A stretch of 64,000 nucleotides of DNA, taken from IMG/VR virus record IMGVR_UViG_3300025030_000004, positions 32,001 through 96,000 of that record. One strand, given 5' to 3'. The position numbers and the translations under genes were made by a program. Below are positions 37,141-63,852 of the stretch, piece by piece. The DNA is from a virus. Positions within the stretch are counted from its first letter, which is position 1; each line of letters starts with the position of its first letter. The notes below the pieces were generated by a model. That model saw nothing but the letters and a program-made list of their open reading frames with translations. It did no database searches and had not been told where the DNA came from.

Positions 37141-37246
37141 TTCCTTAATAGGTCATAAAAATAGGGAAAGACACTCAAACTCTAAGGAAAGTCCAAGTGT
37201 CTTAATTACACTCAATCAGGTATCGATCCCTAAAAGAGCAACCATA
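37141..37246 (-). ncRNA. structured leader RNA, divergent copy
   Basis: hairpin with ATCGAT loop plus long hairpin whose loop TTCCTTA is complementary to TAAGGAA at the RBS. Confidence 0.5.
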
Positions 37247-37323
37247 AAATTGTAAAAACAAAACAAAACAAAAAAAACACCTATCTCTAGATGCTTCAAA
37301 TGTGTCCGTAACGGACATAATTA

Positions 37324-39183
37324 TTAATTATCTTTTCTAACAATAATCTTAGGATAACTTCTAGCAGGACAATCAATATTATATTTCTCTTTAATGTCTT
37401 TATTAGCAGTTATCTTAACCAAACCATAACTATCCAATATTTCTTGAATACTACGTTTCCATTGAGTTTCAGAAGTATTATTAACCTTTAAATCCTTCTC
37501 TAAGACATATCCTTGTGCTTCTATGCCACTCATTATGTATGTAGCTAATATATTGCTATTATCATCAGATTTCTCAGTAGTACCTTGCTCATTTTCATAA
37601 ACATATTGAGGGAATACTCTATTAGTAAACTCCATTCCGAATGTCCTTAATAAATATTCCCTAGATAATCCCTTTAAAGATATATTATGTTCCTTTAATA
37701 CAATAGCAATTTTATTACTTTCTTCCAATGAATTAACACCATATGAGTCAATACTATAGAAGTTAGTCAATTTTTTATGCTTGTATTTAGCAGCAATATG
37801 TTTTGCTTTCTTGAGTGTATCTTCTGGTAATTTTTCATGAGGTATTTTATTCAATAAACTTAACAAAGTAAATAAAGTAACACTCTGAGATACTTTGGTT
37901 TTATCCTTTGAGTCAAATACATCCATTAAATTATTTAAAGATATAAAGAATAAAGGGTTTCCATCCACACTAAAATCTTCTTTTTTAACATTCATTTTTG
38001 CAAGATTGTTCAATGCAATAAGATTGGATTTTCTAGTTCTAATTAAAGAATATAATTGTGGATATATTTCCTTAAATTCAGCCGATAATAATAATTCAAT
38101 ATTCGTATCAAGTATTTCTATTTGTTCCTTTTGCCATTTAGTTTGTTGGAGTTCGATATTATACACTTTCTTAATAAACTCAATAGCTTTAATTCTTTTA
38201 CATTTAGCAAGTTTCTCTACTAATGATATTATTGTATATTTAGCTCCACACCCAAAACATTTATATATTTGTGTACCACTATTAGTTTCATAGATATGGG
38301 CAGAAGGAGTATCGTCTTGATGGTCTGGTAATATGCAATTTACTGTTCCATAAATATTTGTAAAATCACATAAATCAATTTTATTCATAAAATCATATAC
38401 TTCTTGTTTATTTATGCATATTATTTCCTCATCATTATCAATATTTAAAAGTGATTTCATCAAAACTATATCAAGAGATTTTATAGCTTCAATATTAGAA
38501 AAATACCCTGTAACCGTTGGGAGAGTAGCAACGTGAGCTTTCTCCATACTGATAGAAGAAGAGTTTAGTGTATTAGTATTGAGAAAGCTCAGAGTGTCCT
38601 TAGAAGTACCATTAACCTTAACTTTAATAAGAGAAGAAATTAGAGTATTTAAAACATCTTCAAATCTTACCATAATATCACCAACATTAATTCTATTTTC
38701 ATAATCACATTCAATTAAACCCTTACCTCCAAAGAATAGTCTTGTAGGATCAAATGTCACGCTGTCACTATTAGGAAATAATTCAATTAATAACTTTTGA
38801 AAATTATTTCTTATTTCAACATCAATGATTATTTCTTCGCTACAAAATACTAATCTAAATTTCTCCTTATATTCTGTATAAGAGAAAGTCTTATACCCAA
38901 ACACAGGTTTAATACCTAATTCTTTACATCTTTTTAATTCATTATTTATAGTTGTTCCTTCGTCAAAATCTAATGCAAATATCTGTTGACTTACCCAATC
39001 TTTACTTTTTGTTCCATTAAGTAATGCAGGTTTAAATGTTGCTCCATTACACAATAAATTTGCCAATTCTTCAATTTTAATTTCTGTTTGAGACATTCTT
39101 TTCTGAATTCCACCTGATTCTGCTCCACTTGGTTTCTTTGTAAATGTCTTTTTGTCTAACATACATTTAATCATTTTTACCAT
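37324..39183 (-). CDS. primase-like replication initiator (Rep) with central CHC2-type zinc finger
   Basis: FALDFD, YKTFS..KFRLVF, DPTRLFFG, C..PDH.D.TPSA...YKCFGC. Confidence 0.65.
   Translation of the reverse strand: MVKMIKCMLDKKTFTKKPSGAESGGIQKRMSQTEIKIEELANLLCNGATFKPALLNGTKSKDWVSQQIFALDFDEGTTINNELKRCKELGIKPVFGYKTFSYTEYKEKFRLVFCSEEIIIDVEIRNNFQKLLIELFPNSDSVTFDPTRLFFGGKGLIECDYENRINVGDIMVRFEDVLNTLISSLIKVKVNGTSKDTLSFLNTNTLNSSSISMEKAHVATLPTVTGYFSNIEAIKSLDIVLMKSLLNIDNDEEIICINKQEVYDFMNKIDLCDFTNIYGTVNCILPDHQDDTPSAHIYETNSGTQIYKCFGCGAKYTIISLVEKLAKCKRIKAIEFIKKVYNIELQQTKWQKEQIEILDTNIELLLSAEFKEIYPQLYSLIRTRKSNLIALNNLAKMNVKKEDFSVDGNPLFFISLNNLMDVFDSKDKTKVSQSVTLFTLLSLLNKIPHEKLPEDTLKKAKHIAAKYKHKKLTNFYSIDSYGVNSLEESNKIAIVLKEHNISLKGLSREYLLRTFGMEFTNRVFPQYVYENEQGTTEKSDDNSNILATYIMSGIEAQGYVLEKDLKVNNTSETQWKRSIQEILDSYGLVKITANKDIKEKYNIDCPARSYPKIIVRKDN
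38534..38591. repeat. intragenic 23-bp inverted repeat, candidate origin
   Basis: TGAGCTTTCTCCATACTGATAGA vs TGAGCTTTCTCAATACTAATACA (20/23), 12-nt spacer. Confidence 0.6.
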
Positions 39184-39215
39184 CTCTCTTTCTTTGTTAC
39201 TCTCTAAAAAGGTAA

Positions 39216-39277
39216 ACTAGCAAGATAGGGGAGAGTACCCTTTGATGATGATTCATGAGGTCATCACTCTTGCTAGT
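39216..39277 (-). ncRNA. structured three-way-junction leader RNA upstream of rep
   Basis: P1 ACTAGCAAGA/TCTTGCTAGT, P2 loop with TCATGA, P3 loop TACTCTC complementary to downstream GAGAGTA. Confidence 0.75.
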
Positions 39278-39347
39278 CATATTTGTGTAATATTTCAACA
39301 CAAAAAATCTCATTCTTAATAAAGAATGAGATTACTTCTATTGAAAT

Positions 39348-39600
39348 TTAACTTATGCTATTTTATATACTCCTTTAAAATTAACTAATTTATTAATGAC
39401 AGATGTTGATACTTTATACTCCTCTGCCAATTCTTTTTGCATATATTTTCCCGTGCTGAACCTCCGCACGAGCTAAAGCTCGGCAGGTTCTTATGTACTA
39501 GTATATTTTCCCTAATTTCTAATACTTGTTCAGAATTGAATTTTATTTTTGCATCAGATAACTTTTTCCGATATTCTGCTTCAATTCCTATTGAAATATT
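39348..39600 (-). pseudogene. C-terminal remnant of a GIY-YIG endonuclease, interrupted by an IS-end fragment
   Basis: KKLSDAKIKFNSEQVLEIRE...STGKYMQKELAEEYKVSTSVINKLVNFKGVYK aligns by eye with the C-terminus of 63134..63739. Confidence 0.7.
39457..39502 (-). mobile_element. IS200/IS605-type end hairpin remnant
   Basis: AAGAACCTGCCGAGCTTTAGCTCGTGCGGAGGTTCA; GC-rich insert in an AT-rich pseudogene. Confidence 0.6.
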
Positions 39601-39652
39601 ATTTATTATTTACATATCATGAAAGCAAAGTTTCACTCTAAAAGGTTTGTGA

Positions 39653-39979
39653 TTACTTCTTTAATGCATCGTTCTGTACTCCGACCAATTCTTCAACTAT
39701 TTTAACTGCATTTTCGATAATTTCCTGAGTAGGCACAATCCCAGTATCTTTTTTATATTTAGCTACAAAAGTTGTTATGAAATAGCTTAACTTTTCATTG
39801 CCTTGAATTCCCCAAGTCTTATAGTTATCTTCAATATAACTAAATAAATCAACCGATATATCAATATATTTTTTAGAGATTAGATTTTTATTAACCAATA
39901 CTCCGATTAAAATTACTAAAACTATTGCATATAATGTTAATGCAGGGGTGGAGAGGAGAACACTTACTAATAATTCCAT
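39653..39979 (-). CDS. holin (LL-H-like)
   Basis: N-terminal TM, G.EKL...IE.AV pattern; lysis cluster. Confidence 0.65.
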   Translation of the reverse strand: MELLVSVLLSTPALTLYAIVLVILIGVLVNKNLISKKYIDISVDLFSYIEDNYKTWGIQGNEKLSYFITTFVAKYKKDTGIVPTQEIIENAVKIVEELVGVQNDALKK

Positions 39980-40011
39980 TTAATTTTCCTTCTTTCATCA
40001 AAATACGTAGC

Positions 40012-40046
40012 CGGATACCCCTAGCTTTAGCTATGGGGTTATTGAC
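40012..40046 (-). mobile_element. IS200/IS605 (IscB/HEARO-type) terminal hairpin footprint
   Basis: GTCAATAACCCCATAGCTAAAGCTAGGGGTATCCG. Confidence 0.55.
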
Positions 40047-40050
40047 TTTA

Positions 40051-40395
40051 CTAGTATCCTTTCGGTATTTCATTAGTTTGACTAAAATTAGTATCCAGCT
40101 CTGTATTTTGAACAGAATTATCTTCCGCGCTCATAATTTGCGTAAATATATTCTCATTTTCTTGAGTTTGACTTTGAGCATTATAAGAATCCTTTTTAAA
40201 GTAACTCAAACCTTTCCTGAGCACAAGTAAACTACCTACCGCATATGCCAATTCATTAATTAAGGCACTTTCTACAGATTTAAATACCCACATATATAAA
40301 ATTGTGAACACAATAACCAATAATAAAAACGAAAGCAATAACTTTTCCACATCTTTTATATCAAGCCCGTCTTGATCAGACCAAAATCCCTTCAT
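40051..40395 (-). CDS. two-TM holin-like protein
   Basis: two hydrophobic helices; lysis cluster. Confidence 0.6.
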   Translation of the reverse strand: MKGFWSDQDGLDIKDVEKLLLSFLLLVIVFTILYMWVFKSVESALINELAYAVGSLLVLRKGLSYFKKDSYNAQSQTQENENIFTQIMSAEDNSVQNTELDTNFSQTNEIPKGY

Positions 40396-40414
40396 ATTAT
40401 TTACCTCCTCTCGC

Positions 40415-40824
40415 TTAAAAAATAGGAATAGTAACGGTTACACCTTTCATTGCAAAATATCCTAGAATTAATACCCCAATAATTGAACCGCTAATTTTTA
40501 ATATATTAATAATAATATCCTTTTTATTTGTCGATTTGGTTTTAGTAAGCTCAGTTGAATTATTAGAGGTATTGATTACAATTTGTGACATTGTTTGCAT
40601 CATTGAATTAGCTGTTTGCAAATAATTGTTTTCAAAACGTACCAATGTGCCTTTTACATCTTTCATTGAATCTTCCAGATTATTAAGTTTTTCTTCAAAA
40701 CTTGCACTTTTAATTTGCAAATCTATAATTTTTTTATCGTGATCATCAATTTTCTTACCATGATCATCAAGAATTATTTTTACTTCATCTTCAATTCCCA
40801 CTTCTTCCAACACCTCATCTTTCA
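40415..40824 (-). CDS. XhlA-like lysis accessory protein (coiled coil plus C-terminal TM)
   Basis: GGGAGG RBS before TTG 40824; H.K.I.DH..KI..L coiled coil, C-terminal TM. Confidence 0.6.
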
Positions 40825-40852
40825 AAGATAGCTGCCCTCCCTTTAAAATAAT

Positions 40853-40958
40853 TTGCAAATAATCTGAATCTATGGTATAATTAATTGCCAATACTATAGA
40901 CATGTTCTATAGCCAAAGGCAACAAGGGAAGCAGGGCAATGCAACCCTTGTTATTTTT
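40853..40958 (+). ncRNA. promoter plus ~72-nt two-hairpin small RNA antisense to the lysis operon
   Basis: TTGCAA-N17-TATAAT with TG; hairpin CTATAGA/TCTATAG; terminator AACAAGGG...CCCTTGTT-ATTTTT. Confidence 0.6.
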
Positions 40959-40974
40959 GACTTTGAACTATCAA

Positions 40975-42471: not shown

Positions 42472-42573
42472 AAATTATTTATATTTTATGATTTTTAAGC
42501 AAAAGAAAAACACTAGATGATTTTTCCCTAGTGTCTATTTCTTGCGAAATAATTTTAAATTATTATATATTGT

Positions 42574-43563
42574 TTATTGCACAAAACATTTTTTATATGT
42601 ATGATTAACGTGATCATCTGTAACTTGACAATAAATTTGAGTGGTTTTTGGATCGCTATGCCCAAGAATATTTTGGACTGTACTTAAATCACAATTATTA
42701 TTTAGTAAAAGTGTTGCAGTTGTGCTCCGCATGACATGTGGGTGGAACTCTTTGTTTATTCCACAATTGTTTAATATTGTTTTAAATTCTCTTTGAATAC
42801 CACGTTTTGATAATCTTCTATATGGTTTTCTCTCTGTAATAAATAGAGCAGGGTCATTGTCCGTCCTAGAATTTATGTATTTTTTCATTTGAAATATTGC
42901 TTTATATCCAAAATACACATCTCTCTGTTTATCGCCTTTGCCAATTACTCTAATTTTCATATTTTGCCAATCAATATCCGTAAAACGATTAATATTATAA
43001 ATTTCTGATAACCGACACCCCGTAGCATAGAAAACTTCTATCATTGTTTTTTGGCGTGGTGTTTTACAAGACTCTCTGATCTGTTCTAATTCTTCTATTG
43101 TCAAGGCTTTAGGTAATCTCTTTTCTTTCTTTGGATTTTTTATTTTGCTAGTAGGGTCTGACAGAATTATTTCCTCATTCTTTAACCAACTTAAAAAACT
43201 TTTTAAAACAGATATTCGCCTAGACAATGAACTAGTTTTTAATTTATCCCACTTACTTAAATACATTCTAATATCATTAGTACTAATATCTTCGACTCTT
43301 TTCTGGACATGTTTTGCAAATATTGACAATTCTAATTTATAACTTTTTAATGTTAACTCACTTAACCCCTCTAATTTCTTACCTGATAAAAATAACTTAA
43401 TTTTTTCTTGTAAGTCCATACATTCATTCCTATATGGGGATATTATAGAGATATTATATTTGGTTAATATAGTATTTAGATTATGTAATTGGGACTCTGT
43501 ATTTATTAATGGAAAGTTCTCCATTATTTCTTGTTGTAATAGTTCATTGTAAATGTTTGGCAT
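42574..43563 (-). CDS. XerC/D-like tyrosine recombinase
   Basis: TGCRLSE, GKGDKQR, HPHVMR, LGHSD..TTQIY; AAAGGAG RBS before ATG 43563. Confidence 0.92.
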   Translation of the reverse strand: MPNIYNELLQQEIMENFPLINTESQLHNLNTILTKYNISIISPYRNECMDLQEKIKLFLSGKKLEGLSELTLKSYKLELSIFAKHVQKRVEDISTNDIRMYLSKWDKLKTSSLSRRISVLKSFLSWLKNEEIILSDPTSKIKNPKKEKRLPKALTIEELEQIRESCKTPRQKTMIEVFYATGCRLSEIYNINRFTDIDWQNMKIRVIGKGDKQRDVYFGYKAIFQMKKYINSRTDNDPALFITERKPYRRLSKRGIQREFKTILNNCGINKEFHPHVMRSTTATLLLNNNCDLSTVQNILGHSDPKTTQIYCQVTDDHVNHTYKKCFVQ

Positions 43564-43587
43564 AGCACTGTCTCCTTTCTCATAAAA

Positions 43588-43616
43588 AGTATACCATACT
43601 ATGCCATCAATTACAA
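43588..43616 (-). promoter_or_regulatory. sigmaA promoter of tyrosine recombinase
   Basis: TTGTAA-N17-TATACT with TG extension. Confidence 0.65.
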
Positions 43617-43642
43617 ACAAACTAAAAATAATTAATTATCAC

Positions 43643-43674
43643 TTAGTGAACTACATGCGTCTATTATGCAACAA
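43643..43674. other. candidate tyrosine-recombinase site (cassette boundary 1)
   Basis: TTAGTGAACTACA-TGCGTC-TATTATGCAACAA at GC-content step. Confidence 0.55.
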
Positions 43675-43801
43675 TTGGATTTCCGTTATCATCAAGTCCG
43701 AGCGCCAACAAGTCCTCGTGAACCGCTGCCTGATACTTCGTTGGAATTTGAACAAAAGTTCTTCTCCCGCTTATGATTAACGCAACATATAAATCTACCA
43801 C
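43664..43801 (-). CDS. CD1375-like small tail-fibre-associated protein (45 aa)
   Basis: GGAGG RBS; MVDLYVALIISGRRTFVQIPTKYQAAV... Confidence 0.75.
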   Translation of the reverse strand: MVDLYVALIISGRRTFVQIPTKYQAAVHEDLLALGLDDNGNPIVA

Positions 43802-43937: not shown

Positions 43938-43938
43938 T

Positions 43939-46190: not shown

Positions 46191-49100
46191 TTAGTTTAGA
46201 TCAATCCAAATGTCGTTTGTAATTGGATTACTTGGAGCGACAGTCCCAACCGTAAAATCATGACCATTAATTTTTTCTGCATTGTCAACTATTCCATTTA
46301 GGTTCAGGTCATAAACTGATTTTGTCATATCTCCTGCCCCTAAGGCAGTTACAGTATTTTGCACAAAAGCAGTAGTGGCTAATTGTGTTGTATTTGTTCC
46401 CGTGGTTGCTGTTGGGGCGGTTGGAATACCAGTAAATACAGGAGAGCCTAAATCCGCTTTAAATGAATCATATGAATAAAGTCTTAACCTCCCTCCTTTA
46501 TACTCATATATGGGGTGATCGCCGATCAATCTCATTGTGGCATATGTGTCACCCATAAAACCTAAGAAAATATATACTTTCCCATTTTCTGAAGATGGTA
46601 GTGTCTGAGTTATCCATGCGGTAGAACCAGCTATCCCTGCCCCATCCAATACGAAATTACCATTGGCATTCATAGTGCCTACTAAATAAACTGGTCTATA
46701 TGCAGTAGCCCAGCCACTCGGATTATTAATCGTATAGTGAAAATTACTGTAATAATATTCGCTCCATAGATAGCCCCCTCCACCGTTGGCATTAGCGAGT
46801 AGATCTGTTGAAGTTCCGTGATATAGTATCGTGCCACCTAACTTAAATTCAGCAGATGATACAGTCTTGGTTGTAGCCGTAGTCCCTTCTAGTGTTAACG
46901 GATAGAACTTACCATCAATGCCCTCCATTACAAACTGATATCCATACATCGTTGTTCCAGCAGTAATGTTATTCTGCCAACGCATTTCATAGTCGGACGT
47001 TGAATCATAATCAGAACCCTCTGTCATGAAAGAGCCGCCATTAAGTGTTTCGGAATAAATTAACAAAAGTATAGAATTTGGTTGATAATGTGTGGTCAAT
47101 TTAGAATTTGAATACCTATAAATAGTTTTAGCACCTAATCCATTAATATCTAATGTAGTTGTTGTTGCTCCTGCAATTGGTACTTTATATAGAATAGCTA
47201 ATCCATCATAGTATGAAGTTATGACTGCTTCAGTAGCAAGCCAAGTTCCAGCTACAGTCCCAGTACCATTTATAAAATATGGCGTTACACCTACAGTTAT
47301 ATCTGCTCCAGTATGAGTATGAATAGAAGATGCTTTTCCGTCCAAAGTTGTTTGAAGATTATCAACATTTGAAATGACATGGTTATGGGAGTCATCTACT
47401 ACGGTTGCAGTTAAAGTGCCACTACCCAAATCGGTTAATGTTACACTACCAGTTAAATCCCCTCCAAGAGTAATTGTAGGATCTGGTTTGTTTGTTGCGT
47501 TATTAAAATCTAAGTAGTATGAACCCTCCTGATCATCTAGTTCGTCAGCGTTTAAGTTTGTTACTTTAGATGTTGATGTTATAGTTAGTGTATCGGTATA
47601 TGTATTTGACCAGTAATAAGAAGGATCTCCTAGAGTGTATAAACTATCTGTGTAAGGATATATATTTCCATAAACAGAAGAACCGCCTTTTGATATAAAT
47701 GTTTCTTTTAATCCCTCAGAACCATAATTTAATACTCCTATTTGTGCTATTCTAAATCCAGTTGCAGTTACCCAATCACTAAAAGTTAATCTTACTTTAT
47801 TAAATCCAGTTCCGTTGTTATGACTAAATGTTATGAAATATTCTCCTCTACCATTTCCTGTAACGGTAGCCTTATTTGTCCAATCTACTTCTCCGTTATT
47901 TGGGTTCATTACATCAACTGTAATGTTTCTTGATCTCCAAGCAGAAGCACCAAACGCAATGTATATAGTATTAGTCCATGTAAAAGTTTTGTGTAAAACT
48001 AATTCTATTGAAATTGAAGTGACACCTGTTGGATTGATTGCCCAATATGAAGGAGAACCATCAAACACATTGTTTAAATCAGTACTTTGTAATACACCAT
48101 CATAATATACTGATGCGCTACCGCCTCTTTTTAACAAAAATGCAATATCATTGTTTATGAATGGAATAATAGCTTTTCCATTTTCTGGGTGCGTGTCAAT
48201 ATATATTTGAGAATCAGTATATCCGCTACCAAAATACTCTGGATCAATATTTGTTACAGGAATAATAATATTTGATGAACCATCAAATGAAGTGGCAGTT
48301 CCAGTAGCACCACCACTCATAGCTATAGTTCTAGCGGTCGTTAATTTTGAAGCACTTAAAACATTTTTAGCTGAATCAGCAATATTGTCTGCTGATCCTA
48401 AACCAACTTGAGATTTAGTAACTGAGTGAGGATTTGATGAATTACTAGTATGAGAAGTTAATGTTGTTAGATTATCGGATATTTGTTTTTGTAATTTGCC
48501 TAAAGCACCAAGAATTGTATCAGTAGTAGTTATAATAGCATTTGTGGCTGTAGATAATCCTGTTAAAACCGTTGATAAAACTGTTGAAGCAAAATCTGAT
48601 ATTTTAGATGAAGTTGTTGTTCCTGTTAGATTACCAATATTTATATTTGACTCAACTACATCTAAAGTGGGATTTCCTGCAACTCCAGCAGGATTTGTTA
48701 TGCTTAATTTAGTAGAACCTACAGCTATATTTCTTTTTGTAAAAGTATCTGTTCCTGTTTCTACTACTAAACCTGTTGTAGTGTCTAACCCTGCAAGAGC
48801 AGTAAGGGTAGCATCACTTGTTTGTTTCCCGTTTAATTGAGTTTGAATAGCAGAAGTAACTCCACTAACATACCCTAATTCTGTTGAAGTTACTGCACTT
48901 GTAGCAACCTTACCGCTAGAATCTGAAACCAACGCTTTACTAATAGTTAAATTAGAAGAAGTTATTGAAGTTGCTCCACCTGTAATTGTATTTTGTTTGG
49001 ATGTATCAGAAGGATGAACGTGATCTGCCCTTGGAATATTACTAGAAGTCCCTACTGAAACATTTCCATCCATTTTCATATTAGTTGTGGATGTTTCAAA

Positions 49101-52100
49101 ATTTTGATTAAAAGCAGTTAGTTTTGTAATTGTAGGTTCAGCTCCAATAGAAGCAGGAGATATAGGGTCAGAACCTCCTATAGCATGTGTAGACGCATGA
49201 ATATAATCTATCACATTCATCACACTAATATAATCAACTAACACTTTATCATTTTCTTCAACTCCACCATCTAAAGTTATACTAGTGGTAGAAGTTTCAG
49301 TAAATGAAGTATTTGGTTGTCTAGTACCATTAATATACACTTGTACTCTATTAGTACCAATATTATATATACCCTGTGTAAGAGTAAATAAAGTTTGTCC
49401 TGCCGAAGCAGTAAACTCTTCAGAATGTTGAATCACAACATAATCACTACCAGTTATACCAGATAATAAATTTTGTTTTGTTATTTTTTTATATGCCAAA
49501 TTAGTAGAATCATAAATTAATATCTCATCAGTATTCACAGAAGATAATAATTCGGTTAAATTATAAAAATCATCATCAAGTGGTCTACTTACGAGAGATG
49601 TATAATTTTTTTCTGCTAAATTTGCAAGATTATGATTATGTGTAGTTGCAGATTTACTGTCTAATGCTGTCTGTAAACTATCAACATTACTAATTACATG
49701 ATTATGTGAATCATCTACAACTGCTACAGTAAGTGTTCCTGAACCTAAATCTGTAAGTGTAACACTACCTGTTGCATCTCCTGTAAGAGTAATAACTGGA
49801 TCTGGTTTGTTGGTAACATTAGTCCAATCTTGATAATATGAACCATGTTGTCCATCAAGTAAATCAGAGTCCAAACCTGATGTGGTACCGTCAACTGTTA
49901 ATAACTTTGTCAAAATTCCACTGGCAGAATCATTAATCCCGAAAGAGATATTTGAATACCATATAGTAGAACCTGCCACGTCTCTGTTGTTTAGAAATAA
50001 TAATTTTACGTATGCCGTAGCGGGGGTAAAATTATTATAATTGTCTGCATTAATCCCACCACTAACAACTCCACTAATAGTGTCGGTATAATTTGTCCAT
50101 ACTGAAGGAACAACAGAATTGACTGCGCCAATATAAATATAGGAAGATCCTGAACTACCATTACTAATCGGTGTACCTACAGGCTTAGTTACTCCACTCC
50201 AAGGCACTTTAAGAGTTATTGAATTAGTATCATAGTTAACTGCCCCATCACTCCATGTATCATACCCAGAGTAATTTCTGCTATAGGTTTCAGGTGGGTA
50301 TAAATAACCCCCTGCATTACTATAATCCCAAGTTATAAATGAGCGATTATGGGTACTTGATCCTTGAGCATTTTGCCAATTGGCAGCACTTGTTAAATAT
50401 AATACTGTGTCACCAGGTTTCAATTCTTGCGCTAACATAGTTAAAGTATTTGGGAAATACATGTAATGATAAGCGGATATAGGGTTTTTGTCCACGTCAG
50501 AACATGATATTCCTGTGTAATATTTAGCTCCAACACTGGGGTATGTTTTGGCGTAAACGCTTAGACTGTAAGACAACATTGGGTTTACGGGTATGAACTC
50601 ATCAGAATATCTTGTCGCATTGTAGGTACTATCCTTAAAAGAACCACCAGCCCCATATGCATCAGACTTGTCTAAAATAAAAGCGCTAAAATTAGTATTA
50701 TTGCCAAGTAAGGCCGTTCCGTTGGTTACTAAATTTTGCCCCCTCGATGCTACATAATCATAGATATCTGTTAATTGTTTCCCATCCAATAAATCGGAAT
50801 CTAACCCACTACCACTACCATCGACAGTTTTTATCTTAGTTAAAACATCGCTTGCGGTATAGGATGAAGAATCCAACTTGCCATTAATTGCCGTTTGTGT
50901 TGCTGTGCTGATTGGTTTATCAAGATCTGTTGTATTATCTACATTAGACAATCCAACCGCTGTTTTATCAAGCGCTTGCCAAGTTTTGTCTCCCCTCCAA
51001 TATTGAGAGGTTGTTCCTGCTGTAATTGTTGACTCTTTAGTAGAATCAGCAATCGTTACATTAGCCGTACCATCAAATGAAACTCCATTGATTGTTCTTG
51101 CTGTCGTTAATTTAGTAGCACTCAAGACACTTTTAGTAGAATCAGAAGTATTATCCGCTAAACTCAATCCTACTTGCGATTTAGTTACGCTATGGGGATT
51201 TGAACTATTAGAAGTATGATTAGTTAAAGTTGTTAGATTATCACTAATTTGTTTTTGCAATTTACCTAAAGCTGTCAAAACCGTATCGGTTGCTGTAATC
51301 ACAGCATTAGTGGTTGTCACCAATCCTGTTAAAATAGTTGCTCTAACTGTAGTGGCGAAATCTGAAATTGTAGAAGCTAACTGAGTGCCAGTGTGATTTG
51401 CTCTATCTCTATCAGTTGTGTGATAATGCCCAGAAACATCTCCGCTTAACGCACTTTGTTTGGCATTCCAAGTTGATTTCTCTGTATCGGTTACAAAACG
51501 ATTTGAGGCATCTTGGCTAATAATGGAGGGAGGATGATTGGCAGGGTGAATATACACAGTATCAGTAAATAAAGCCCCTACAGGTACGTTGGTCAAAACT
51601 TGACTATCGTCCACCTTCCCATCAAGTGCTGTTTGTAACCCATCTACATTTGATATAATGTGATTGTGAGAGTCATCATTTATAGATACATTACCGCTAA
51701 CATCTATTGTAATATCAGTGCCAGATTTAATACCTCCTAATACAATAGCCGTAGCAACAGGCAAGGAATAATTGTTAGCATTATCTTCAATTCCACTTAA
51801 TTTTGTTTGTTCGGCAGTTGTATATGAAGCAGTAGTATTGTCTAGGATTGTTTGATTTAAATGGGAATGTTTTTTAGCTACAGAATCATCAATATTGGCA
51901 GGAGTCGAAGTTGGTTTTCCTGTAATGTCAGACCAAGCAACTGATATCCCACTATTGCCATAAAAATCTTGAGTGGTATCTACGAATGCTTGAGAAAAAT
52001 CACCATTTGGTAGTTCAATATTTACGACTTCCCCGACAGTAGGGGATAGTCCTGCACGAACTTTTATATTAGAATATGTCTCGTCATTTAATACAATATC

Positions 52101-54161: not shown

Positions 54162-55420
54162 ACTATAACCTCCGCATGGAGACTTAATATATTACCAATT
54201 TGTTGTAAATACAAATAATAACTAGATCCATTTACTGAAACGTTATCTATTTCTATACCATTTTCAAACAAGTGAAATGCACCATTATAATATCTAAGTA
54301 AAATTATATCACTATTACTATTTGACATTTTTAATATTTCACTTGTATCATTTGAACTATTGCTTCCAGTATCAATCCATAATTTATCTGTAGTTGGAGC
54401 TACAATATCTAATATGGGAGTTAATACTCTTGGCACAATGGTTTGATCATCTATCCATAAGTAATTTGTAGCAGGAGTAATATTACCTGCTGATATATTT
54501 AATGACAATTCTGTTGTTTGAGCAGAATTATCAAGCCATATAATAGATGTGTCAGTTAATGGTACATTATAGGACGTGATAGAAGTAGTTTGATTGATTG
54601 TGTATACATTATTATTAACACTTTCTAACCAAAGTTTTAATGTGAAATCATTTTCTATATTAAAATCACTATCAAACCAGACTCTACCATTTGTAGTATC
54701 AATCTTTTCACCATTGATGTATGAAGTATTTTCTGAATTACCGATGATTTGAACAACATTCCATTGTAAATTGATAGCTCCTTGGTCTGATATGTTTGAT
54801 GATTGAAGATCAAGTACGGATTCGGGAACGGTATATTGGATGTTGAATTTTATTTTATTCGTACTTGCCAAAATATCATCCTGTGACTTCACTTGGCACT
54901 CTATATAATAAAAATTATTATTAAAACCAGAAAATTGATATTCTATAATAGAATTAAACGTTTCTGATGTAGTTGTGATAATGGCATTGTTACTGTCATA
55001 CATTATCATTTGCCATGATTTAATTGCTACTGATTCTAATTGGCTATATTGTGCCGTAAAAAGATATTGTGAATTGTAAATAATGTCGTTTTCTATTACG
55101 TTTGTAAAAGAAATTGAGGGAGTGGAAGAACATTTAAAAAGTATCCAATTCGAAGTAGCTGATGCGTCAACTTGATTAAATGTTTGGATCTGATATTTAT
55201 AAATAGTTCCATCAATTAATGTGTTACCAGAAATAACATGAAAAGTATTAAAAGATACTACTACATTTGTATCATAAACTAAAACATTAGTCGTATTGTT
55301 ATATATTTGAATTCTATATTTATATTGTCTATCTCCTGAGTTAATCCAACTTATTGTTATTGGAAAAGTAGCATCTAAACTAATATTATTAGGAGAGATA
55401 CCACTGGGCTTCATAATCAT
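54158..55420 (-). CDS. tail protein with Fn3/Ig-like domains
   Basis: ISW...YRIQIY...YKYQIQT pattern; follows tape measure. Confidence 0.65.
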   Translation of the reverse strand: MIMKPSGISPNNISLDATFPITISWINSGDRQYKYRIQIYNNTTNVLVYDTNVVVSFNTFHVISGNTLIDGTIYKYQIQTFNQVDASATSNWILFKCSSTPSISFTNVIENDIIYNSQYLFTAQYSQLESVAIKSWQMIMYDSNNAIITTTSETFNSIIEYQFSGFNNNFYYIECQVKSQDDILASTNKIKFNIQYTVPESVLDLQSSNISDQGAINLQWNVVQIIGNSENTSYINGEKIDTTNGRVWFDSDFNIENDFTLKLWLESVNNNVYTINQTTSITSYNVPLTDTSIIWLDNSAQTTELSLNISAGNITPATNYLWIDDQTIVPRVLTPILDIVAPTTDKLWIDTGSNSSNDTSEILKMSNSNSDIILLRYYNGAFHLFENGIEIDNVSVNGSSYYLYLQQIGNILSLHAEVIV

Positions 55421-56568
55421 TTATATCCCTCCTTAGACAAAATTAAATTCTTATTTAAAAGATAACTTTCTAAAATATTTTCAATCTTATCAAAATCACA
55501 ATACCATATTTCTAAAAAATTATATTTGTTTAATAAAGTATATTCTTTTTTGCGTCTATCATGTTCAACTTGTTTTTCAAAATCTTTTTTTGACTTATGA
55601 AGACCTTTTTTATATTTCTCGTGTTGAACCCCTTGATACTCAATTAATAGACTATGTTCTGGTAAATAAAAATCATAAGAAAGTAATCCACTACCCAATC
55701 CTAATAACCCTTTAAATTCTTTTTGCGGTTCATAACAAATACTATTATTAACCAACCATTCTTTAATTCTCTTTTCGCCTTTTGACTTATTGCATTCTGG
55801 ACAACCACGACCAGAACTTCTGCTTTTTATTGTGGAATCCCATTCGTGTTCACATTCAAAACATTTCCACCAAACTTTTCGTCTATCATATTTAACTACA
55901 TTAAATGGAGTTAAATCTCCGTTTAAACTTGGATGCCATTCTTTTGCTAATTCTGGATTCTTTGTTGCCAAACAATTAGATATCCCAATTTGTCTACTAT
56001 CACATGCTCCACAACCCATTCCTTCTATGATTCTATTCCAAGTAGCTTTAAAAGTCTCTCCACATTTAGGTTTTAAACACCTCCATTCTAATTTTTTCAT
56101 AGAAGTTTCATATTTATCACTAATTAACTCAAATGGTTTACTATTCAATTCACACCAGAGTTTGATATTTTGAATTGAAAAATCATTTGATGGATATGCT
56201 ATTGGAAAACTTCCATGTTTTCGATTGTCACTCAACATTGTCCAACTCATTGAAAATAAATACCCAAGTTTATCTTTTAAAACTAACCTTGAACAACTAT
56301 TTGTATATACATTTGACAATAATTCTAAATTTATATTATTTACTATTAGATAAAGATTAATGTTTTGTATTGTATATGGATTCGAACAATGAATATATGA
56401 AGGTGGATATCCTTGATTTAAACTATCTAAACTCACTTTATAATAATACCCTATTTTATCTGATATGGTTATTGGTGTTCTTATATTATTATATTTAGTA
56501 TCAATTAAATTATATCCTAAGTCTTCAATAATCTCTTTAACTTCTTCATATTTATATTTTTTACCCAT
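55417..56568 (-). CDS. zinc-ribbon / very-short-patch-type free-standing homing endonuclease
   Basis: AAGGAGG RBS before ATG 56568; LATKNPELAKEW, WWKC..C.HEW, SYDFYLP..LIEYQG.QH..HDRRK. Confidence 0.8.
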   Translation of the reverse strand: MGKKYKYEEVKEIIEDLGYNLIDTKYNNIRTPITISDKIGYYYKVSLDSLNQGYPPSYIHCSNPYTIQNINLYLIVNNINLELLSNVYTNSCSRLVLKDKLGYLFSMSWTMLSDNRKHGSFPIAYPSNDFSIQNIKLWCELNSKPFELISDKYETSMKKLEWRCLKPKCGETFKATWNRIIEGMGCGACDSRQIGISNCLATKNPELAKEWHPSLNGDLTPFNVVKYDRRKVWWKCFECEHEWDSTIKSRSSGRGCPECNKSKGEKRIKEWLVNNSICYEPQKEFKGLLGLGSGLLSYDFYLPEHSLLIEYQGVQHEKYKKGLHKSKKDFEKQVEHDRRKKEYTLLNKYNFLEIWYCDFDKIENILESYLLNKNLILSKEGYK

Positions 56569-56615
56569 TTTATCCTCCTTTATAATATCCTCATAAAAAA
56601 TAAACAAAACAAAAA

Positions 56616-56671
56616 GCAGGGAAGAGGAGGATTCTCTTATCGGTGAGTTAATTACTCTCACCTATCCCTAC
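56616..56671 (-). ncRNA. structured three-way-junction leader RNA
   Basis: P1 GTAGGG/CCCTGC, P2 loop with TAATTA, P3 loop AATCCTC complementary to GAGGAT at two downstream sites including the RBS. Confidence 0.75.
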
Positions 56672-59700: not shown

Positions 59701-61086
59701 AACACTATTTAAAGATCGCCCAATAGTCGAGGCAGACTCCCGTGTGATACTGGAAATTGTTGCCAGCCATGAAGCGCTTTTTTCGAGGGAAATATTGCTA
59801 TTCTCACTTGCCGATGCCACCCGTTGTAGAGCTTCTCCAATTTCATTGGCCCCAGAGGCGGTGGTATCACCAAGTAAAGCGAACACATCAATAATTTTTG
59901 TAACACTTTCTCCAGTAGCATTAGCTGTGGCAGTAATGATTTTATTACTATCTTTTAAAGAGATTGAACTTATTTTGGCATATTGTACAATTGCTTTCAT
60001 TCGATCTTCTACTTGATTATTATCTAGTCCTTGTCTAAATAAATCAGCAGCAGTAGACGTTAGTTCTCTTGTAGTAACCGACATTTCTTTTGCTAATTTA
60101 TTATAAGATACAGCTAAAGATTCTACTTCTTCTTGTGTTTGACCAGTTACAATTCTTACCTGATTTAAATTATTTTCAAGTTCATAAATATATTTAAAAC
60201 CACTAGAAATTTGTCGAATCGTCCCGAAAATCGCCGTTCCAATAATACTCCACTGAAGCATTTTGACAGCCGAAGAACCAAAGGACTGTGCAGAATCATG
60301 TGTATGACGGGCAAGGTTAGCCATTGCTGGATTTAAACTTACCACTCGACGTTCTAATTCAGTCATAGAATTAATATTTCTATTGGAATTTGTAAATAAT
60401 TGAGCGAGTGCAGAATTACTAGCAGTTATCCTGTTTGTATCTAAATTTCTAAAATTGTTAAAAGTATTGCCAATTGCTTCAGAAGTTCCGACTGTTGAAA
60501 CCCTGCTAACTCTATCAAGTTGTGTATAGTATTCTCTAAGAGCCGAATTCGATGCATTTATCCTATTTGGTGTCAACAAAAGACTATTATTTATAGCGTC
60601 AGATGTCCGTACTGTTGATACTCTACTAATTCTATCCATATTGGCATAATATTCTCTAAGAGCAGAATTACTAGCAGTTATCCTGTTTGGGTCTACAACT
60701 CCTATACCCAAAGATTGATTAAAATTATTAAACATCTGTTTATTATAAGCATTCTTTAATGCTTGTGTTTCCATTAAACTAGCATTATATAATTTATTAT
60801 TCTCTGTTAATTTTAACTGTGACACAACCATTTTGTCAGTTTCAGCGTTTAATTTTTGAACAATTTTGACTTGATTACCATAAGAGTCAGTTGCTCCAAG
60901 TATATGTTTTTGTAACTGTTGCATTCCGTTTTCGAGAATTTTAATATCTTTGACAGAAGTAGCAGTATCTAATTTCAATTGTAATGGAGCTAATTGCTTT
61001 GATAATGATTGTATTTGCTGATTAATTGCTTGCCCACTTTGAATGGCGTTCAATTTTGCCTGTATAATAATTGAAAGATTATCCAA
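56707..61086 (-). CDS. tail tape measure protein
   Basis: 1459-aa helical protein, TP901-type core (VRIVTG, IGEALQR, IGRSLNS), YANGT..GEKGAEL C-terminus. Confidence 0.9.
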   Translation of the reverse strand: MDNLSIIIQAKLNAIQSGQAINQQIQSLSKQLAPLQLKLDTATSVKDIKILENGMQQLQKHILGATDSYGNQVKIVQKLNAETDKMVVSQLKLTENNKLYNASLMETQALKNAYNKQMFNNFNQSLGIGVVDPNRITASNSALREYYANMDRISRVSTVRTSDAINNSLLLTPNRINASNSALREYYTQLDRVSRVSTVGTSEAIGNTFNNFRNLDTNRITASNSALAQLFTNSNRNINSMTELERRVVSLNPAMANLARHTHDSAQSFGSSAVKMLQWSIIGTAIFGTIRQISSGFKYIYELENNLNQVRIVTGQTQEEVESLAVSYNKLAKEMSVTTRELTSTAADLFRQGLDNNQVEDRMKAIVQYAKISSISLKDSNKIITATANATGESVTKIIDVFALLGDTTASGANEIGEALQRVASASENSNISLEKSASWLATISSITRESASTIGRSLNSVISRYESIKKTGFNSEDETKINDVVKALSDVGIKATDSQGQLLDFAIIMDTVGEKFGSLSKNEKAYIATTMFGTFQRNRGITLLNNYQDSLKNYENALNAAGTAEEKFAIYQESSAASLDRLRVSWETFWQSSISTDFIKGGLNSLSYLIDTFGNLRTIIIAVTTAILIFNGTNLTNWFRTSIIAAQGFRAGMISTGVATNGLTLSMNALKVAFLSNPFGFIAVAVLTLVSAYDILLPMLGNMKSDYEELNEIEEERIKSIQKEAETHKALASQYEEDIKRTKQLIDTRNELEKSSSELADTDSKKIDINASIINSEQELGNIIGQEALNRLKAAGFSQDASNIVIQALQEKQNAEKIAYENSSKLVSQQTDNLRRNIITQIKQIDSAVQAYGILGKLQENGLWIEKKLIYARYKLNPTPDNAKAYDEIKNQIESFYDQQKSNKISKLLEQLNSLGGTSIDTPDIPNLNGGVSGNTSGSSSKSSSKNDPSYESLTDATIRLIQVESNLTATKSKSIETDLSQAKSQKNYQKELELTTSLLSNQSTQIQQLGLAKQKLESEFARTSQSSGFSDTSLWFDQNGEQTLTYLSKFNSSSKETQDQMKLTFDSLSKLKKAWSDNSTAIQDLTQSQNELKTSLSDLSKTLSTEVIEATKKLAQSELDIEEKSLKSYITRKELKIKGIQEEIDALEEKADIENEQEERAKRLLDIEKAKQNLNNLSKEKDTRILVGDTWTWQANPQKVAEANENLKNLQEDYAEWEEDNDLKHKKAILQAEIDYQQSLIDKREESFEKQKEIFDEQWKNIDDMSTKMLEQFGSNVDNAVKILAEKLITLNAQLAAINAGSTNLPDSLNSGSSSNSSSGGNTIVYNNGPNGWTEYDSNGNAIAAGTTPRYANGTESASGGLSLVGEKGAELRVLNQGDGIIPTSITKNLMALGANPLNYMQNILSNISLLKVPDFSRINNSPTSPINTYNINIAKVETQDAGSFIDLLPTLVHQYK

Positions 61087-61184
61087 AGAATGTTACCTCC
61101 TTCTCTTCGTGTTTCAATTAAAAAGAGAAGGGATAACCCTCTCTTAAAATGACAAATATATGTATTTATTTTCAATTTAATAAC

Positions 61185-61214
61185 TTGCATATTAATAAAC
61201 AATTAGACTATAAT
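61185..61214 (+). promoter_or_regulatory. sigmaA promoter of counter-oriented moron
   Basis: TTGCAT-N18-TATAAT. Confidence 0.6.
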
Positions 61215-61233
61215 GTAAATGAGGTGATGAAAT

Positions 61234-61791
61234 ATGAACGCTCTATCAATAGTATTTATTATTATTTTAGCAACTATTGTTAGTCTAATTTTAGTTATGA
61301 TTCTTAGCAGTAAAGATAATAAAAGTCAAATGGAAGAATATTACCAAAATTTAAAGGAAAGAAATGTAATATGCGAATATGGAATTATTCATATTACAGG
61401 TCATCCATATTTAAAAACTAATGATTTAATAAAATTCCAAATAAAAACAAACCGTACGTTTTATTTCTTTAAAGAAAACATAGATACTGGTGATGAAATA
61501 CCATTATCACAAATTATTAGATATGAAATTAAAACAGAAACAGAAATTCATAAAGATGTGACTTTAACTAGATTATTAACTTTGGGCATATTCGCCTTCG
61601 GGGTAAAGAAAACAACAAAAATAGAAGATCAATTCTTTATACTATCATATAAACAAAATGAAATTGAAATAACTTGTATATTTAAACAAAGTTATAAACA
61701 TCAAAATCTTCATGAAATTGTTAGTACATTGAATAGAATGAGAATTGAAAGTAACAAATCTATTAATAATCAAGTAAAAGAGTGTACTTAA
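61234..61791 (+). CDS. membrane-anchored moron protein, opposite to the tail operon
   Basis: N-terminal TM; KDVTLTRLLTLGIFAFGVKK; own promoter and terminator. Confidence 0.75.
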   Translation: MNALSIVFIIILATIVSLILVMILSSKDNKSQMEEYYQNLKERNVICEYGIIHITGHPYLKTNDLIKFQIKTNRTFYFFKENIDTGDEIPLSQIIRYEIKTETEIHKDVTLTRLLTLGIFAFGVKKTTKIEDQFFILSYKQNEIEITCIFKQSYKHQNLHEIVSTLNRMRIESNKSINNQVKECT

Positions 61792-61806
61792 TTTGTACAC
61801 TCTTTT
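61776..61806. terminator. bidirectional terminator
   Basis: AAAAGAGTGTAC-N7-GTACACTCTTTT. Confidence 0.75.
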
Positions 61807-61819
61807 CTAATGTATTTGT

Positions 61820-62296
61820 TTAAATTATATATCCATAATTACTTAATAATTCTCTCATTCTTTTCTTTATATAATCAGTGTCATTTAACCAATCTCTTGT
61901 TACACCAACGGGACGCACACCCTCATAATTAAACAACGGAGAATTATTACCATATTCAATATAATAAGGGATTGCAGCACTAACATCTTCTCCATAGACA
62001 CTTTCATGTTGTCCCCACTCACCGTTATTAGAAGGATGGGGCAATATTAAATCACTTGCAAAATATATCTCAACTTGATATCCGCTTCCAACTTTTTTTG
62101 CTTTAGAATACTGGATGGAGTTAATATACTCCATAGTTCTTGCATATTGAGTTGGAGTATAACTTCTGCCATACCAAAGTTTTTCAACATTTTCGCGGAG
62201 AATACTTTTAACTTCTTCGCCTATTTTATTAAGATTAATTGGTATATTTAATTCAATATATTTTAATAATGAATTCAAATCTTTGAATTCTGCCAT
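61820..62296 (-). CDS. tail-module protein (gp10-like)
   Basis: position; Y.RT..Y..SI, YIEYG motifs. Confidence 0.55.
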   Translation of the reverse strand: MAEFKDLNSLLKYIELNIPINLNKIGEEVKSILRENVEKLWYGRSYTPTQYARTMEYINSIQYSKAKKVGSGYQVEIYFASDLILPHPSNNGEWGQHESVYGEDVSAAIPYYIEYGNNSPLFNYEGVRPVGVTRDWLNDTDYIKKRMRELLSNYGYII

Positions 62297-62865
62297 TATT
62301 TTAACCCATTATTAAATCTTATTGTTTCTGCAACAAATTTTAAATTATCAGGATTAATTTTATTAATCATCTTTGGTAAATCCTTAAGGAGTTTAGTTAG
62401 TTCTTTATTATTAGGAAATTTATCAATAAGTTTATTTAAATTTTTACTTATAATTGTGCTGATTCCATTATCAACGATCATGATCTGATTAATTTCTTTT
62501 TCAATTATTTCATCAATAAAATTTAATTCATCTAAAGGAATATTATTCAAAACATATTTTAAGATACCTTTTTCAGAAATAAAATCATAAACTTCAAACA
62601 TATTCATATCACTATCATTTAAATTTGTATAATTTATAAAAATGTTATAATCTCTAGCAATTTTGAGTAACGAAAAATCTATTTTTATTAGATCATTAGG
62701 AACTTCAGTTTCGTCAGAAACCATTGTAGCAATTTTAATGATATTAGCTATCATTTTCTTTTTAAACCCAAATGGGAAATATGATTTAACCTCTATAATA
62801 TTAGGATATTCTGTGTTAAAATTATTTATTAGTTCGACCACATTAATTATTTTTTGTTCTGCCAT
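62296..62865 (-). CDS. putative tail assembly chaperone
   Basis: position upstream of tape measure. Confidence 0.5.
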   Translation of the reverse strand: MAEQKIINVVELINNFNTEYPNIIEVKSYFPFGFKKKMIANIIKIATMVSDETEVPNDLIKIDFSLLKIARDYNIFINYTNLNDSDMNMFEVYDFISEKGILKYVLNNIPLDELNFIDEIIEKEINQIMIVDNGISTIISKNLNKLIDKFPNNKELTKLLKDLPKMINKINPDNLKFVAETIRFNNGLK

Positions 62866-62900
62866 TATTATTTCCTTCTTTCATTTCGTTATTCCTTGAT

Positions 62901-62984
62901 TTATTTTTTACCAGAAGATTCAAACTCTCCAACTGGCTTCTCTTTCCCACAAATCTTACAAACTTTAGTCTTGATTTCTTCCAT
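62901..62984 (-). pseudogene. 27-aa N-terminal stub of an HNH-type endonuclease
   Basis: MEEIKTKVCKICGKEKPVGEFESSGKK*. Confidence 0.6.
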
Positions 62985-63036
62985 CCACAACCATCTCGCT
63001 TTCTATTATTTATTTACTCGCCTTAAAATATTAAAA

Positions 63037-63100
63037 ACTAGCAAGAAGATGTGCGAGTTACATCTAATAACAGATGATCAGTCTGCTGTCTCTTGCTAGT
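63037..63100 (-). ncRNA. structured three-way-junction leader RNA
   Basis: P1 ACTAGCAAGA/TCTTGCTAGT, P2 loop with TGATCA, P3 loop AACTCGC complementary to downstream GCGAGT and GCGAG. Confidence 0.75.
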
Positions 63101-63133
63101 AAAATTTGTATTTAAATAATATATTATTATATA

Positions 63134-63739
63134 TTATTTATATGTTCCCTTGAAATTCACAACGTTCCAAATGGTTACTTGTGAAACCAAATATTTTTCT
63201 GATAATTGTGTTAGAGTAACTATCCCTGTATTGTATTTATTCCTAATTTCTGCTATTTGATTGGTGTCGAATTTTTTCTTTGCTATACTAATATTTTCTT
63301 TGTGTTCTATACTATGTAGTTTGCCTTTCTGTGCATTGCTCATATTTACTCTAACATTTTCTGATCGAGGTCCAGTCATTTTAAGCCTAGTTTCATCAGA
63401 TAAATGTATTCCAGATGTGGTTCCTCCACCAAAACAGATATTATAATAATTATTATCGTTAACCGCATTATGTAAATTAATTAATTCTATTTCTAGATCA
63501 TTTAACTCTTCCTTTGAATAAGCTATTGCAATTATTTCTCTATAAAAGTTTTCTTTCCCGTATTTATTTACTGCTCGTTTTAATAATTTCCCACTGCCAA
63601 TATATTTCTTCCATCGTTCCCTAAACATTTTTTGTCCAATGTATTTCTTTCCATTAATCATATTTGTTGTAATATAAATAAAACCATATGGATCTAAAAT
63701 TTTTACCTCATCAACTTTTTTTACCCTAACATTTTCCAT
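63134..63739 (-). CDS. GIY-YIG homing endonuclease with NUMOD3 and HTH tail
   Basis: GFIYITTN..NGKKYIGQ, YIGSG, YYNICFGG, HLSDETRLKM. Confidence 0.9.
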   Translation of the reverse strand: MENVRVKKVDEVKILDPYGFIYITTNMINGKKYIGQKMFRERWKKYIGSGKLLKRAVNKYGKENFYREIIAIAYSKEELNDLEIELINLHNAVNDNNYYNICFGGGTTSGIHLSDETRLKMTGPRSENVRVNMSNAQKGKLHSIEHKENISIAKKKFDTNQIAEIRNKYNTGIVTLTQLSEKYLVSQVTIWNVVNFKGTYK

Positions 63740-63790
63740 TATAAAATCATCTCTCTTTCTTATTAGCTCTCATTTTTGGGCATATAAAAT

Positions 63791-63852
63791 ACTAGTAGGA
63801 TAGGGGAGAGCACCCTTTAATGATGGGTAATTAATCCATCACTCCTACTAGT
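63791..63852 (-). ncRNA. structured three-way-junction leader RNA
   Basis: P1 ACTAGTAGGA/TCCTACTAGT, P2 loop with TAATTA, P3 loop TGCTCTC complementary to downstream GAGAGC. Confidence 0.78.

Follow-up and report, generated by a model that had tools for sequence, protein, structure and literature searches.

The question raised by this locus is why one small structured RNA recurs ahead of unrelated phage genes, and what it does there. The window, i.e., the whole 64,000-nucleotide (nt) stretch analysed, comprises bases 32001-96000 of the complete 166,652-bp virus record IMGVR_UViG_3300025030_000004, which was assembled from a groundwater metagenome and has direct terminal repeats and a GC content of 30%. 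Four leader RNAs on its minus strand, copies A to D (Table 1), share a three-way junction made of a closing stem (P1) and two arms (P2 and P3). With a probability of roughly 0.6, the leader is a modular, cis-acting 5' element that would control translation initiation of the following gene, which is usually a free-standing homing endonuclease. In line with this reading, the P3 loop (L) covaries with a proximal site (T1) and with the translation-initiation region (T2) in every family member examined.

An earlier note on this DNA had described the leaders from the letters of the sequence, and the sequences that it quoted for copies A, B, C and D were found at the positions listed in Table 1. The common junction is the minimum-free-energy fold of A, B and D, with z-scores of -2.9 to -4.3; the lowest-energy fold of copy C differs, but covariance models still place C on the same junction. 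Model R1, built from copies A and D alone and run on the whole window with filters off, matched C at an E-value of 6e-9 and B at 0.002, with no other match; its bit scores were 90.5 (A), 92.6 (D), 35 (C) and 18.7 (B). A further model, R2, scores C at 69 bits, and R3, built from two sequences of the subtype represented by copy B, scores B at 55.4 bits (E 4.5e-14). No additional leader copy was found in the remainder of the genome with default filters. Alignments bear out the view that the stem differences between copies are compensatory. A fifth, divergent copy that had been proposed (claimed copy E in Table 1) could not be upheld: it was matched by none of R1, R2 and R3 (E limits of 10, 1 and 1, respectively), it prefers a different fold, and its single 7-nt complement between loop and ribosome-binding site (RBS) is within chance at that length. 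In view of its closing stem, which is like that of copy B, it may be at most a degenerate relative of the B-type.

Approximately 60 further distinct members were found in contigs of uncultured phages and belong to two subtypes, termed ACTAG-type and B-type. ACTAG-type relatives were retrieved by a closing-stem pattern, which gave 18 true relatives in IMG/VR and approximately 26 more distinct ones in metagenome contigs. B-type relatives, the more diverse subfamily, were retrieved with the junction pattern of copy B (GGGAUAGG ... GAUAAGA ... UCCC). The subtypes cross-detect, R1 reaching copy B with the score given above and R3 reaching ACTAG-type members at 18-24 bits. One to four copies occur per genome. 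An initial structural descriptor scan was rejected as too permissive for DNA of this GC content, and weak model matches at L016:1001, L006:6342, L031:5057, L081 and L082 were not accepted as members, as T1 and T2 are lacking. A hammerhead ribozyme reading of the B-type junction was likewise rejected, because CUGAUAAGA has an A at the essential G8 position and there is no GAAA strand (core CUGANGA / GAAA / H17).

The paired state of the junction was evaluated in three alignments. In A5 (19 sequences) 99.2% of the cells are paired and 9 of 21 pairs are changed on both sides; the corresponding values are 95-98% and 16-17 pairs for A6 (50 distinct ACTAG-type sequences), and 97.8% and 6 pairs for A10 (nine B-type sequences). 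None of 500 shuffles reached the observed pairing in any of the three, and pairing fell to 32-66% throughout when the partner column was slid by one to three columns. Relatedness among the aligned sequences, together with the fitting of A5 and A10 to the model, means that these pairing figures overstate independence; the variety of pair types is unaffected by this caveat. In member L066:3517 the entire P1 is swapped for a different 10-bp helix. The strands of the junction are 0-3, 3-4 and 0-4 nt long. The 5' flanks vary (GUUUU or ACACAAA), and the strand between P2 and P3 offers them no consistent partner.

It is the gene-sense strand that folds, as judged from scarce non-pairs and from frequent G-U pairs (35/50 and 14/50 at two P2 pairs in A6), each of which the opposite strand would show as a C-A mismatch. 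An open reading frame (ORF) begins on this same strand 23-72 nt downstream of every member. These features speak against the element working as DNA, namely as the end of a cassette that serves as recombination or insertion hotspot, as operator or target of a nuclease, or as a single-stranded-DNA structure, its RNA features being by-products. Such a role would fit a module common to unrelated genes, with boundaries approximately 17 nt upstream of P1 and within the first four codons, and palindromes are typical of protein-binding DNA sites. However, G-U pairs occur on one strand only, compensatory changes are found in three stems, and the palindromes keep their self-complementarity and not their sequence, so that no single DNA-binding protein explains them. 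In addition, the complementarity of loop and targets tracks the start codon. We therefore regard a DNA-level element as very improbable.

The loop of P3 provides a putative link to translation. L is 7-10 nt long, T1 is located 9-34 nt past the junction, and T2 is located 0-13 nt ahead of the start codon, where it overlaps or replaces the Shine-Dalgarno sequence. In agreement with the earlier note, each of the P3 loops of A to D has two downstream complements, the second beside the start codon; across the family, approximately 13 different loop sequences were found with two matching targets each. In ACTAG-type leaders the variable loop base (CUC-N-C) pairs with T1 (G-N-GAGUA) in 50 of 50 cases (UA 25, GC 23, AU 2), and it pairs identically with T2 (AAGAAAG-N-GAGAUG), again in all 50. 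A second covarying L:T1 pair occurs as AU (32), GC (6) and GU (6). Each leader carries the complement of its own loop allele twice and lacks complements of the others, save incidental overlaps with neighbouring sequence. At the level of sequence, the B-type members settle the complementarity of the loop with two targets: their loops are unrelated (AAUCCUC, ACUCCUA, CCCACG, CCUCGUAA, UACUCCUAAU, ACUCACG, GCUGAACA and GACUCC), and every one of them is complementary to two downstream stretches of 5-9 nt, of which the latter lies 0-13 nt ahead of the start codon. As some T2 sites do not resemble a Shine-Dalgarno sequence (GUUCAG, GUGAGU, CGUGG), the conserved property appears to be pairing with the initiation region, not anti-Shine-Dalgarno mimicry.

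In 10 of 12 cases L:T1 equals or exceeds L:T2 in stability, and T1 is the closer site; T2 is left unpaired in the minimum-free-energy folds of most leaders. Pairing of L with T2 would mask the landing site of the ribosome, and pairing with T1, usually the closer and stronger partner, would leave it free, the balance between the two setting a low level of translation. The choice between T1 and T2 may be made by kissing dimerisation, by a junction that is released and acts in trans, or by a protein; alternatively, a fixed equilibrium may simply keep expression low. We infer that the region is transcribed, that the pairing represses translation and that dimers form. The earlier note had proposed a translational switch, possibly set by kissing so as to sense concentration, with palindromes as orthogonal addresses; translational control stands as the best reading, and the remaining parts stay conjectural.

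Control in cis by alternative pairing of L fits the logic known for homing endonucleases of T-even phages. In I-TevI, I-TevII, I-TevIII, segB and Aeh1 mobE the RBS is masked by leader hairpins, i.e., simple hairpins with the RBS in the stem, and relief comes from a late promoter inside the structure (PMC2988022). As in the T-even leaders, a cis RNA structure located ahead of phage homing-endonuclease genes of unrelated families is predicted to pair with the RBS, and the L:T2 complementarity is present in all members within the distance from the start codon given above. Unlike in the T-even leaders, the RBS would pair as a linear site with the loop of a three-way junction (pseudoknot type) and not within a hairpin stem; a matching second 'parking' site and a conserved self-complementary loop are additional features, and there is no sequence homology.

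Several points weigh against translational control in cis. A search for sigma-70-type promoters beside the leaders was negative; A/T-rich TATA-like hexamers precede T1, and the phage may use other promoter types. The ACTAG-type L:T2 pairing comprises only 5 bp (approximately -6 kcal/mol), so repression may be weak. The preference for T1 would make 'on' the default, and no 'off' trigger was identified. With P3, T1 and T2 being neighbours in related sequences, part of the triple covariation may reflect inheritance as a block; no more than three alleles (U/A, G/C, A/U) occur in the ACTAG type. In L358 only 2 nt separate T1 from T2, and 'parking' on T1 might itself hinder ribosomes there. The GC-rich B-type leader L282 fits the scheme of T1 and T2 poorly, and not every downstream gene encodes an endonuclease.

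The outlier L282 deserves a description of its own. At L282:1491-1553 (identical in L356, L357, L359 and L362) a B-type junction of 67% GC has a long branched P2 without a loop palindrome; its T1/T2 matches are imperfect and may be located within the predicted ORF. This group may work differently.

In ACTAG-type leaders T2 always ends in AUG or UUG, which either opens a mini-ORF of 2-9 codons or reads in frame with the gene. Such starts are seen at window 63750-63737 and 39183-39172 and in relatives; the mini-ORFs encode MIL, MY, MD and the like before the stop, and often end in UAAUG on the main start. They hint at translational coupling; as they are missing from the B-type, they are not a feature of the family. 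A reading of T1 and T2 as an upstream ORF or ribosome bypass (GAG-UAA ... GAG-AUG) was discarded, because the leaders are preceded by a terminator and not by an ORF, and because the pattern is missing in the B-type.

The pairing of L with T1 also raises the question of mRNA stability. In class 1 flavivirus exoribonuclease-resistant RNAs, a small three-way junction has a third arm whose loop pairs just 3' of the closing stem. The leaders have the same topology, with the loop of the arm beside the 3' strand of P1 pairing just downstream, as the L:T1 covariation indicates. A junction with an L:T1 pseudoknot might accordingly block 5'-to-3' decay by RNase J1, or be a site for RNase III or RNase Y, with the purine-rich T2 as a STAB-SD-like ribosome anchor. 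The ACTAG-type T2 (AAGAAAG-N-GAGAUGAU) has long complementarity to the usual 3' tail of Bacillota 16S rRNA, in which the covarying N is bulged. However, the leaders lack a 5'-end pseudoknot and conserved core nucleotides, they match nothing in Rfam, their linker to T1 far exceeds that of exonuclease-resistant RNAs, and they have a second target at the RBS. A role as stabiliser or processing element would give no account of why T2 must match L, nor of the palindromic P2 loop, and is considered improbable.

The P2 loop is typically 9 nt long, with 2 nt, a 6-nt palindrome and 1 nt, so that the palindrome keeps a fixed position (NN-palindrome-N); in some members the palindrome has 4 nt only. The palindromes reported for copies A to D (TCATGA, TAATTA, TGATCA and TAATTA) were confirmed, and in the relatives the sequence varies while self-complementarity is kept. 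Viewed as a set of three 'pairs', the palindrome keeps its inner two complementary in all 50 sequences, double changes included, a level reached by 0 of 500 shuffles; the outer one is U-A in 36 of 50. Nine palindromes occur across both subtypes (UAAUUA, UCAUGA, UGAUCA, UAGCUA, UCGCGA, UUAUAA, GGCC, GUAC and GAUC). The same downstream gene can have different ones: that for a 654-aa protein is paired with UAAUUA, UAGCUA or UCGCGA, depending on the member. The bases of the palindrome are adjacent and thus cannot pair within the loop, and the palindrome does not extend the hairpin, its axis being displaced from the stem's. The offset of the symmetry axes also rules out quasi-palindrome correction as the origin of the palindromes.

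Loop-loop pairing between two copies is the simplest reading of the P2 palindrome, and the sequences argue strongly for kissing dimerisation of the leaders. The dimerisation initiation site (DIS) of HIV-1 is a 9-nt kissing loop with 2 nt, a 6-nt palindrome and 1 nt, in which the palindrome varies and stays self-complementary. The P2 loop shares this layout, with a central self-complementary hexamer unable to pair within the loop (a tetramer in some members). It differs from the HIV-1 DIS in that the flanking bases are not conserved purines, and in being part of an mRNA leader of a DNA phage and not of a packaged RNA genome; its dimers are predicted from sequence. Via the P2 loop, a leader would probably kiss a second leader or a fragment of one, which may shift the balance of L, T1 and T2 or create a site for RNase III. 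A dimer that binds T1 and T2 simultaneously was disfavoured, given their close spacing in L358.

A more elaborate form of this idea is recognition of RNA by RNA among selfish genes: leaders or fragments would meet via the P2 palindrome, and the P3 loop of the partner would mask the ribosome site in trans while the loop in cis is parked on T1. The copy number or dose of the element would thereby be sensed, and the palindrome and the loop with its targets would be two address codes able to evolve independently. We consider this doubtful as a whole. The palindromes do not form strictly orthogonal addresses, since the leaders L005 and L013 on one contig have both addresses in common.

It is unlikely, but conceivable, that the junction itself acts in trans. 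Released as a stable short RNA, by termination at a U-rich tract or by processing, it would dock on full-length leaders via the P2 palindrome, since identical loops can pair with each other only if self-complementary, and mask T2 with its free L while the L of the target is parked on T1, resulting in a product- or dose-dependent feedback on the nuclease gene. Such a regulator gives a role to the palindrome, T1 and T2 alike. A kissing helix stacked between two stems of 6-9 bp would resemble known substrates of RNase III. U-rich tracts follow P1 in most members, strongest in the B-type (copy B: UUUUUGUUUUGUUU), where the 3' strand runs uninterrupted from P3 through P1 up to the tract in the manner of a terminator; these tracts are compatible with partial termination or processing. 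However, the tract is missing from some members (L066:7300, L053), no promoter was located, and the junctions were unflagged by a terminator scan, which models simple hairpins only.

For control in cis, the genes behind the leaders are of particular relevance. The nuclease assignments of the earlier note are borne out: a GIY-YIG protein of SegE type follows copy D, DUF4379 proteins with PHROG matches to HNH or homing endonucleases follow copy B and claimed copy E, and an HNH stub follows copy C. Its label 'Rep' for the gene after copy A found no support, as the protein shows only a DnaG-type zinc ribbon; its feature-level neighbours sometimes carry RepB_primase. Taking all members together, at least five unrelated homing-endonuclease families follow the leaders, namely GIY-YIG genes (SegE-like or PHROG 314) and HNH or homing genes (PHROG 1271 zinc-ribbon (HNH), DUF4379 PHROG 559 / 9084, PHROG 953, PHROG 59, and an HNH_repeat protein). 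The other downstream genes encode a 612-619-aa DnaG-zinc-ribbon protein (PHROG 25531), a 654-aa protein and a 404-aa protein. GIY-YIG and HNH genes have the same first four codons (MENV), which points to an exchangeable module with limits approximately 17 nt before P1 and in the first part of the ORF.

The coordinates of the features are summarized in Table 1.

Table 1. Leader RNAs, their loops and targets, and the genes that follow them, in positions of the window.
Feature	Position	Strand	Remarks
Leader copy A	39216..39277	-	three-way junction; P1 = ACUAGCAAGA/UCUUGCUAGU
Copy A, P2 loop	39252-39260	-	contains UCAUGA
Copy A, P3 loop (L)	39231-39237	-	UACUCUC
A-T1	39198..39204	-	GAGAGUA, proximal 'parking' site; 7-nt complement of L; -8.9 kcal/mol
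A-T2	39184..39188	-	GAGAG inside AAGAAAGAGAGAUGG, ribosome-binding region
In-frame AUG after A-T2	39181-39183	-	precedes main AUG
Main AUG after A-T2	39172-39174	-	
Gene after A	37324..39174	-	616-aa protein, DnaG-type CHC2 zinc ribbon, PHROG 25531; primase-like lead
Leader copy B	56616..56671	-	B-type subfamily: GGGA-UA-P2-GAUA-P3-UCCC
Copy B, P2 loop	56648-56656	-	contains UAAUUA
Copy B, P3 loop (L)	56627-56633	-	AAUCCUC
B-T1	56587..56592	-	GAGGAU, complement of L
B-T2	56572..56577	-	GAGGAU within Shine-Dalgarno GGAGGAU; 3 nt ahead of AUG 56566-56568
Gene after B	55417..56568	-	383-aa DUF4379 treble-clef protein; PHROG 559 HNH / PHROG 9084 homing endonuclease
Leader copy C	63037..63100	-	
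Copy C, P2 loop	63075-63081	-	contains UGAUCA
Copy C, P3 loop (L)	63053-63059	-	AACUCGC
C-T1	63016..63021	-	GCGAGU
C-T2	62995..62999	-	GCGAG in AGAAAGCGAGAUGG
Gene after C	62901..62984	-	27-codon remnant of a zinc-ribbon HNH-type homing endonuclease; resembles N-terminus of PHROG-1271 HNH proteins
Leader copy D	63791..63852	-	
Copy D, P2 loop	63827-63835	-	contains UAAUUA
Copy D, P3 loop (L)	63806-63812	-	UGCUCUC
D-T1	63766..63771	-	GAGAGC
D-T2	63751..63755	-	GAGAG in AAGAAAGAGAGAUGA; a 3-codon mini-ORF begins at its AUG, with the stop overlapping the main start (UAAUG)
Gene after D	63134..63739	-	201-aa GIY-YIG (SegE-like) homing endonuclease
Claimed copy E	37168..37240	-	closing stem UAGGGA/UCCCUA; one loop/RBS complement UUCCUUA/UAAGGAA
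Gene after claimed copy E	35626-37128		500-aa DUF4379 / PHROG 559

The gene after copy B is placed between the tape-measure gene and a tail gene; in a synteny test of the cassette boundary at this copy, the neighbouring tail protein proved to be without close relatives. Leader C is intact although its nuclease gene has decayed, and it now fronts a 189-aa gene (62296-62865) that follows directly. Between an intrinsic terminator (39306-39333) and leader A, a small palindromic hairpin of the GUGUUGAAAUAUUACAC type (UUGUGU...ACACAA) is located at 39283-39301 on the minus strand, its one occurrence in this genome. Hairpins of this type are also found upstream of L011, L018, L023, L029, L053, L056, L057 and L066:7300, and mostly precede genes other than nucleases (those for the PHROG 25531, 654-aa and 404-aa proteins). 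The hairpin could act as promoter or operator, or it could form an additional arm of the RNA.

The note did not recognise the leader as a named family, and the searches agree. The gathering-threshold scan of the window against Rfam 15, whose models include hammerhead, twister, pistol and exoribonuclease-resistant RNAs, gave no match. Scans by E-value (E up to 5-10) of the leader regions and three relatives' loci placed no family on the elements, the sole match being a chance-level snoRNA on L335 (17.2 bits, E 2.9). The int-alpA model (RF02996, gathering score 35.8 bits) matched nothing in the 166,652-bp genome at E up to 10 and was likewise absent from the E-value scans of the leaders. BLAST of the leaders and their flanks against deposited phages gave chance-level matches only. 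No member was found with R2 and R3 on C. difficile phage LIBA6276, Bacillus phages PBC2, FADO and Goe21, and one faecal contig; a 16.5-bit match on Goe21 (E 0.03) was judged to be chance. Literature searches brought up no description of an equivalent leader, although a catalogue of 10,006 candidate RNAs from IMG/VR (PMC10690425) could include the motif.

The four sequencing runs listed for this stretch are all of DNA, come from a single groundwater study and may represent the sample of origin. The DnaE-type polymerase of the phage shares 58% identity with its counterparts in Clostridioides phages LIBA6276 and LIBA2945, and the genome also encodes NrdD, two integrases, an endolysin and a tail module. 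The replisome is full, with DnaE, a DnaB-like helicase, an exonuclease V-like protein and NrdD. A serine integrase and a tyrosine integrase (window 26844-28403 and 42574-43620) coexist in this 167-kb phage with terminal repeats. A 2014-aa ORF holds internal repeats of 284 nt with 75% identity (window 48325-48608 / 51091-51374), and the tape-measure gene has repeats of 72-111 nt (window 60372-60695). Elsewhere in the family, a typical ACTAG-type leader precedes a gene of the 404-aa type in L088 (JBAZHE010000034.1), a 6.5-kb contig of a metagenome-assembled genome labelled Patescibacteria; this is probably a phage contig binned into that genome and not evidence of the host.

Homing endonucleases need low, well-timed expression, and the means by which this is achieved outside T4-like phages are mostly unknown. 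The leader is compact (approximately 60 nt + 50 nt), portable among its unrelated nuclease families and present as two diverged subtypes, and its specificity is encoded as base pairs between the loop L and two targets. If the reading as a translational control element is true, the leader would be a natural re-programmable translational repressor module and, to our knowledge, would contain the first DIS-like self-complementary kissing loop conserved in mRNAs of DNA phages. In the annotation of viromes, it would also serve as a practical marker of free-standing homing-endonuclease cassettes.

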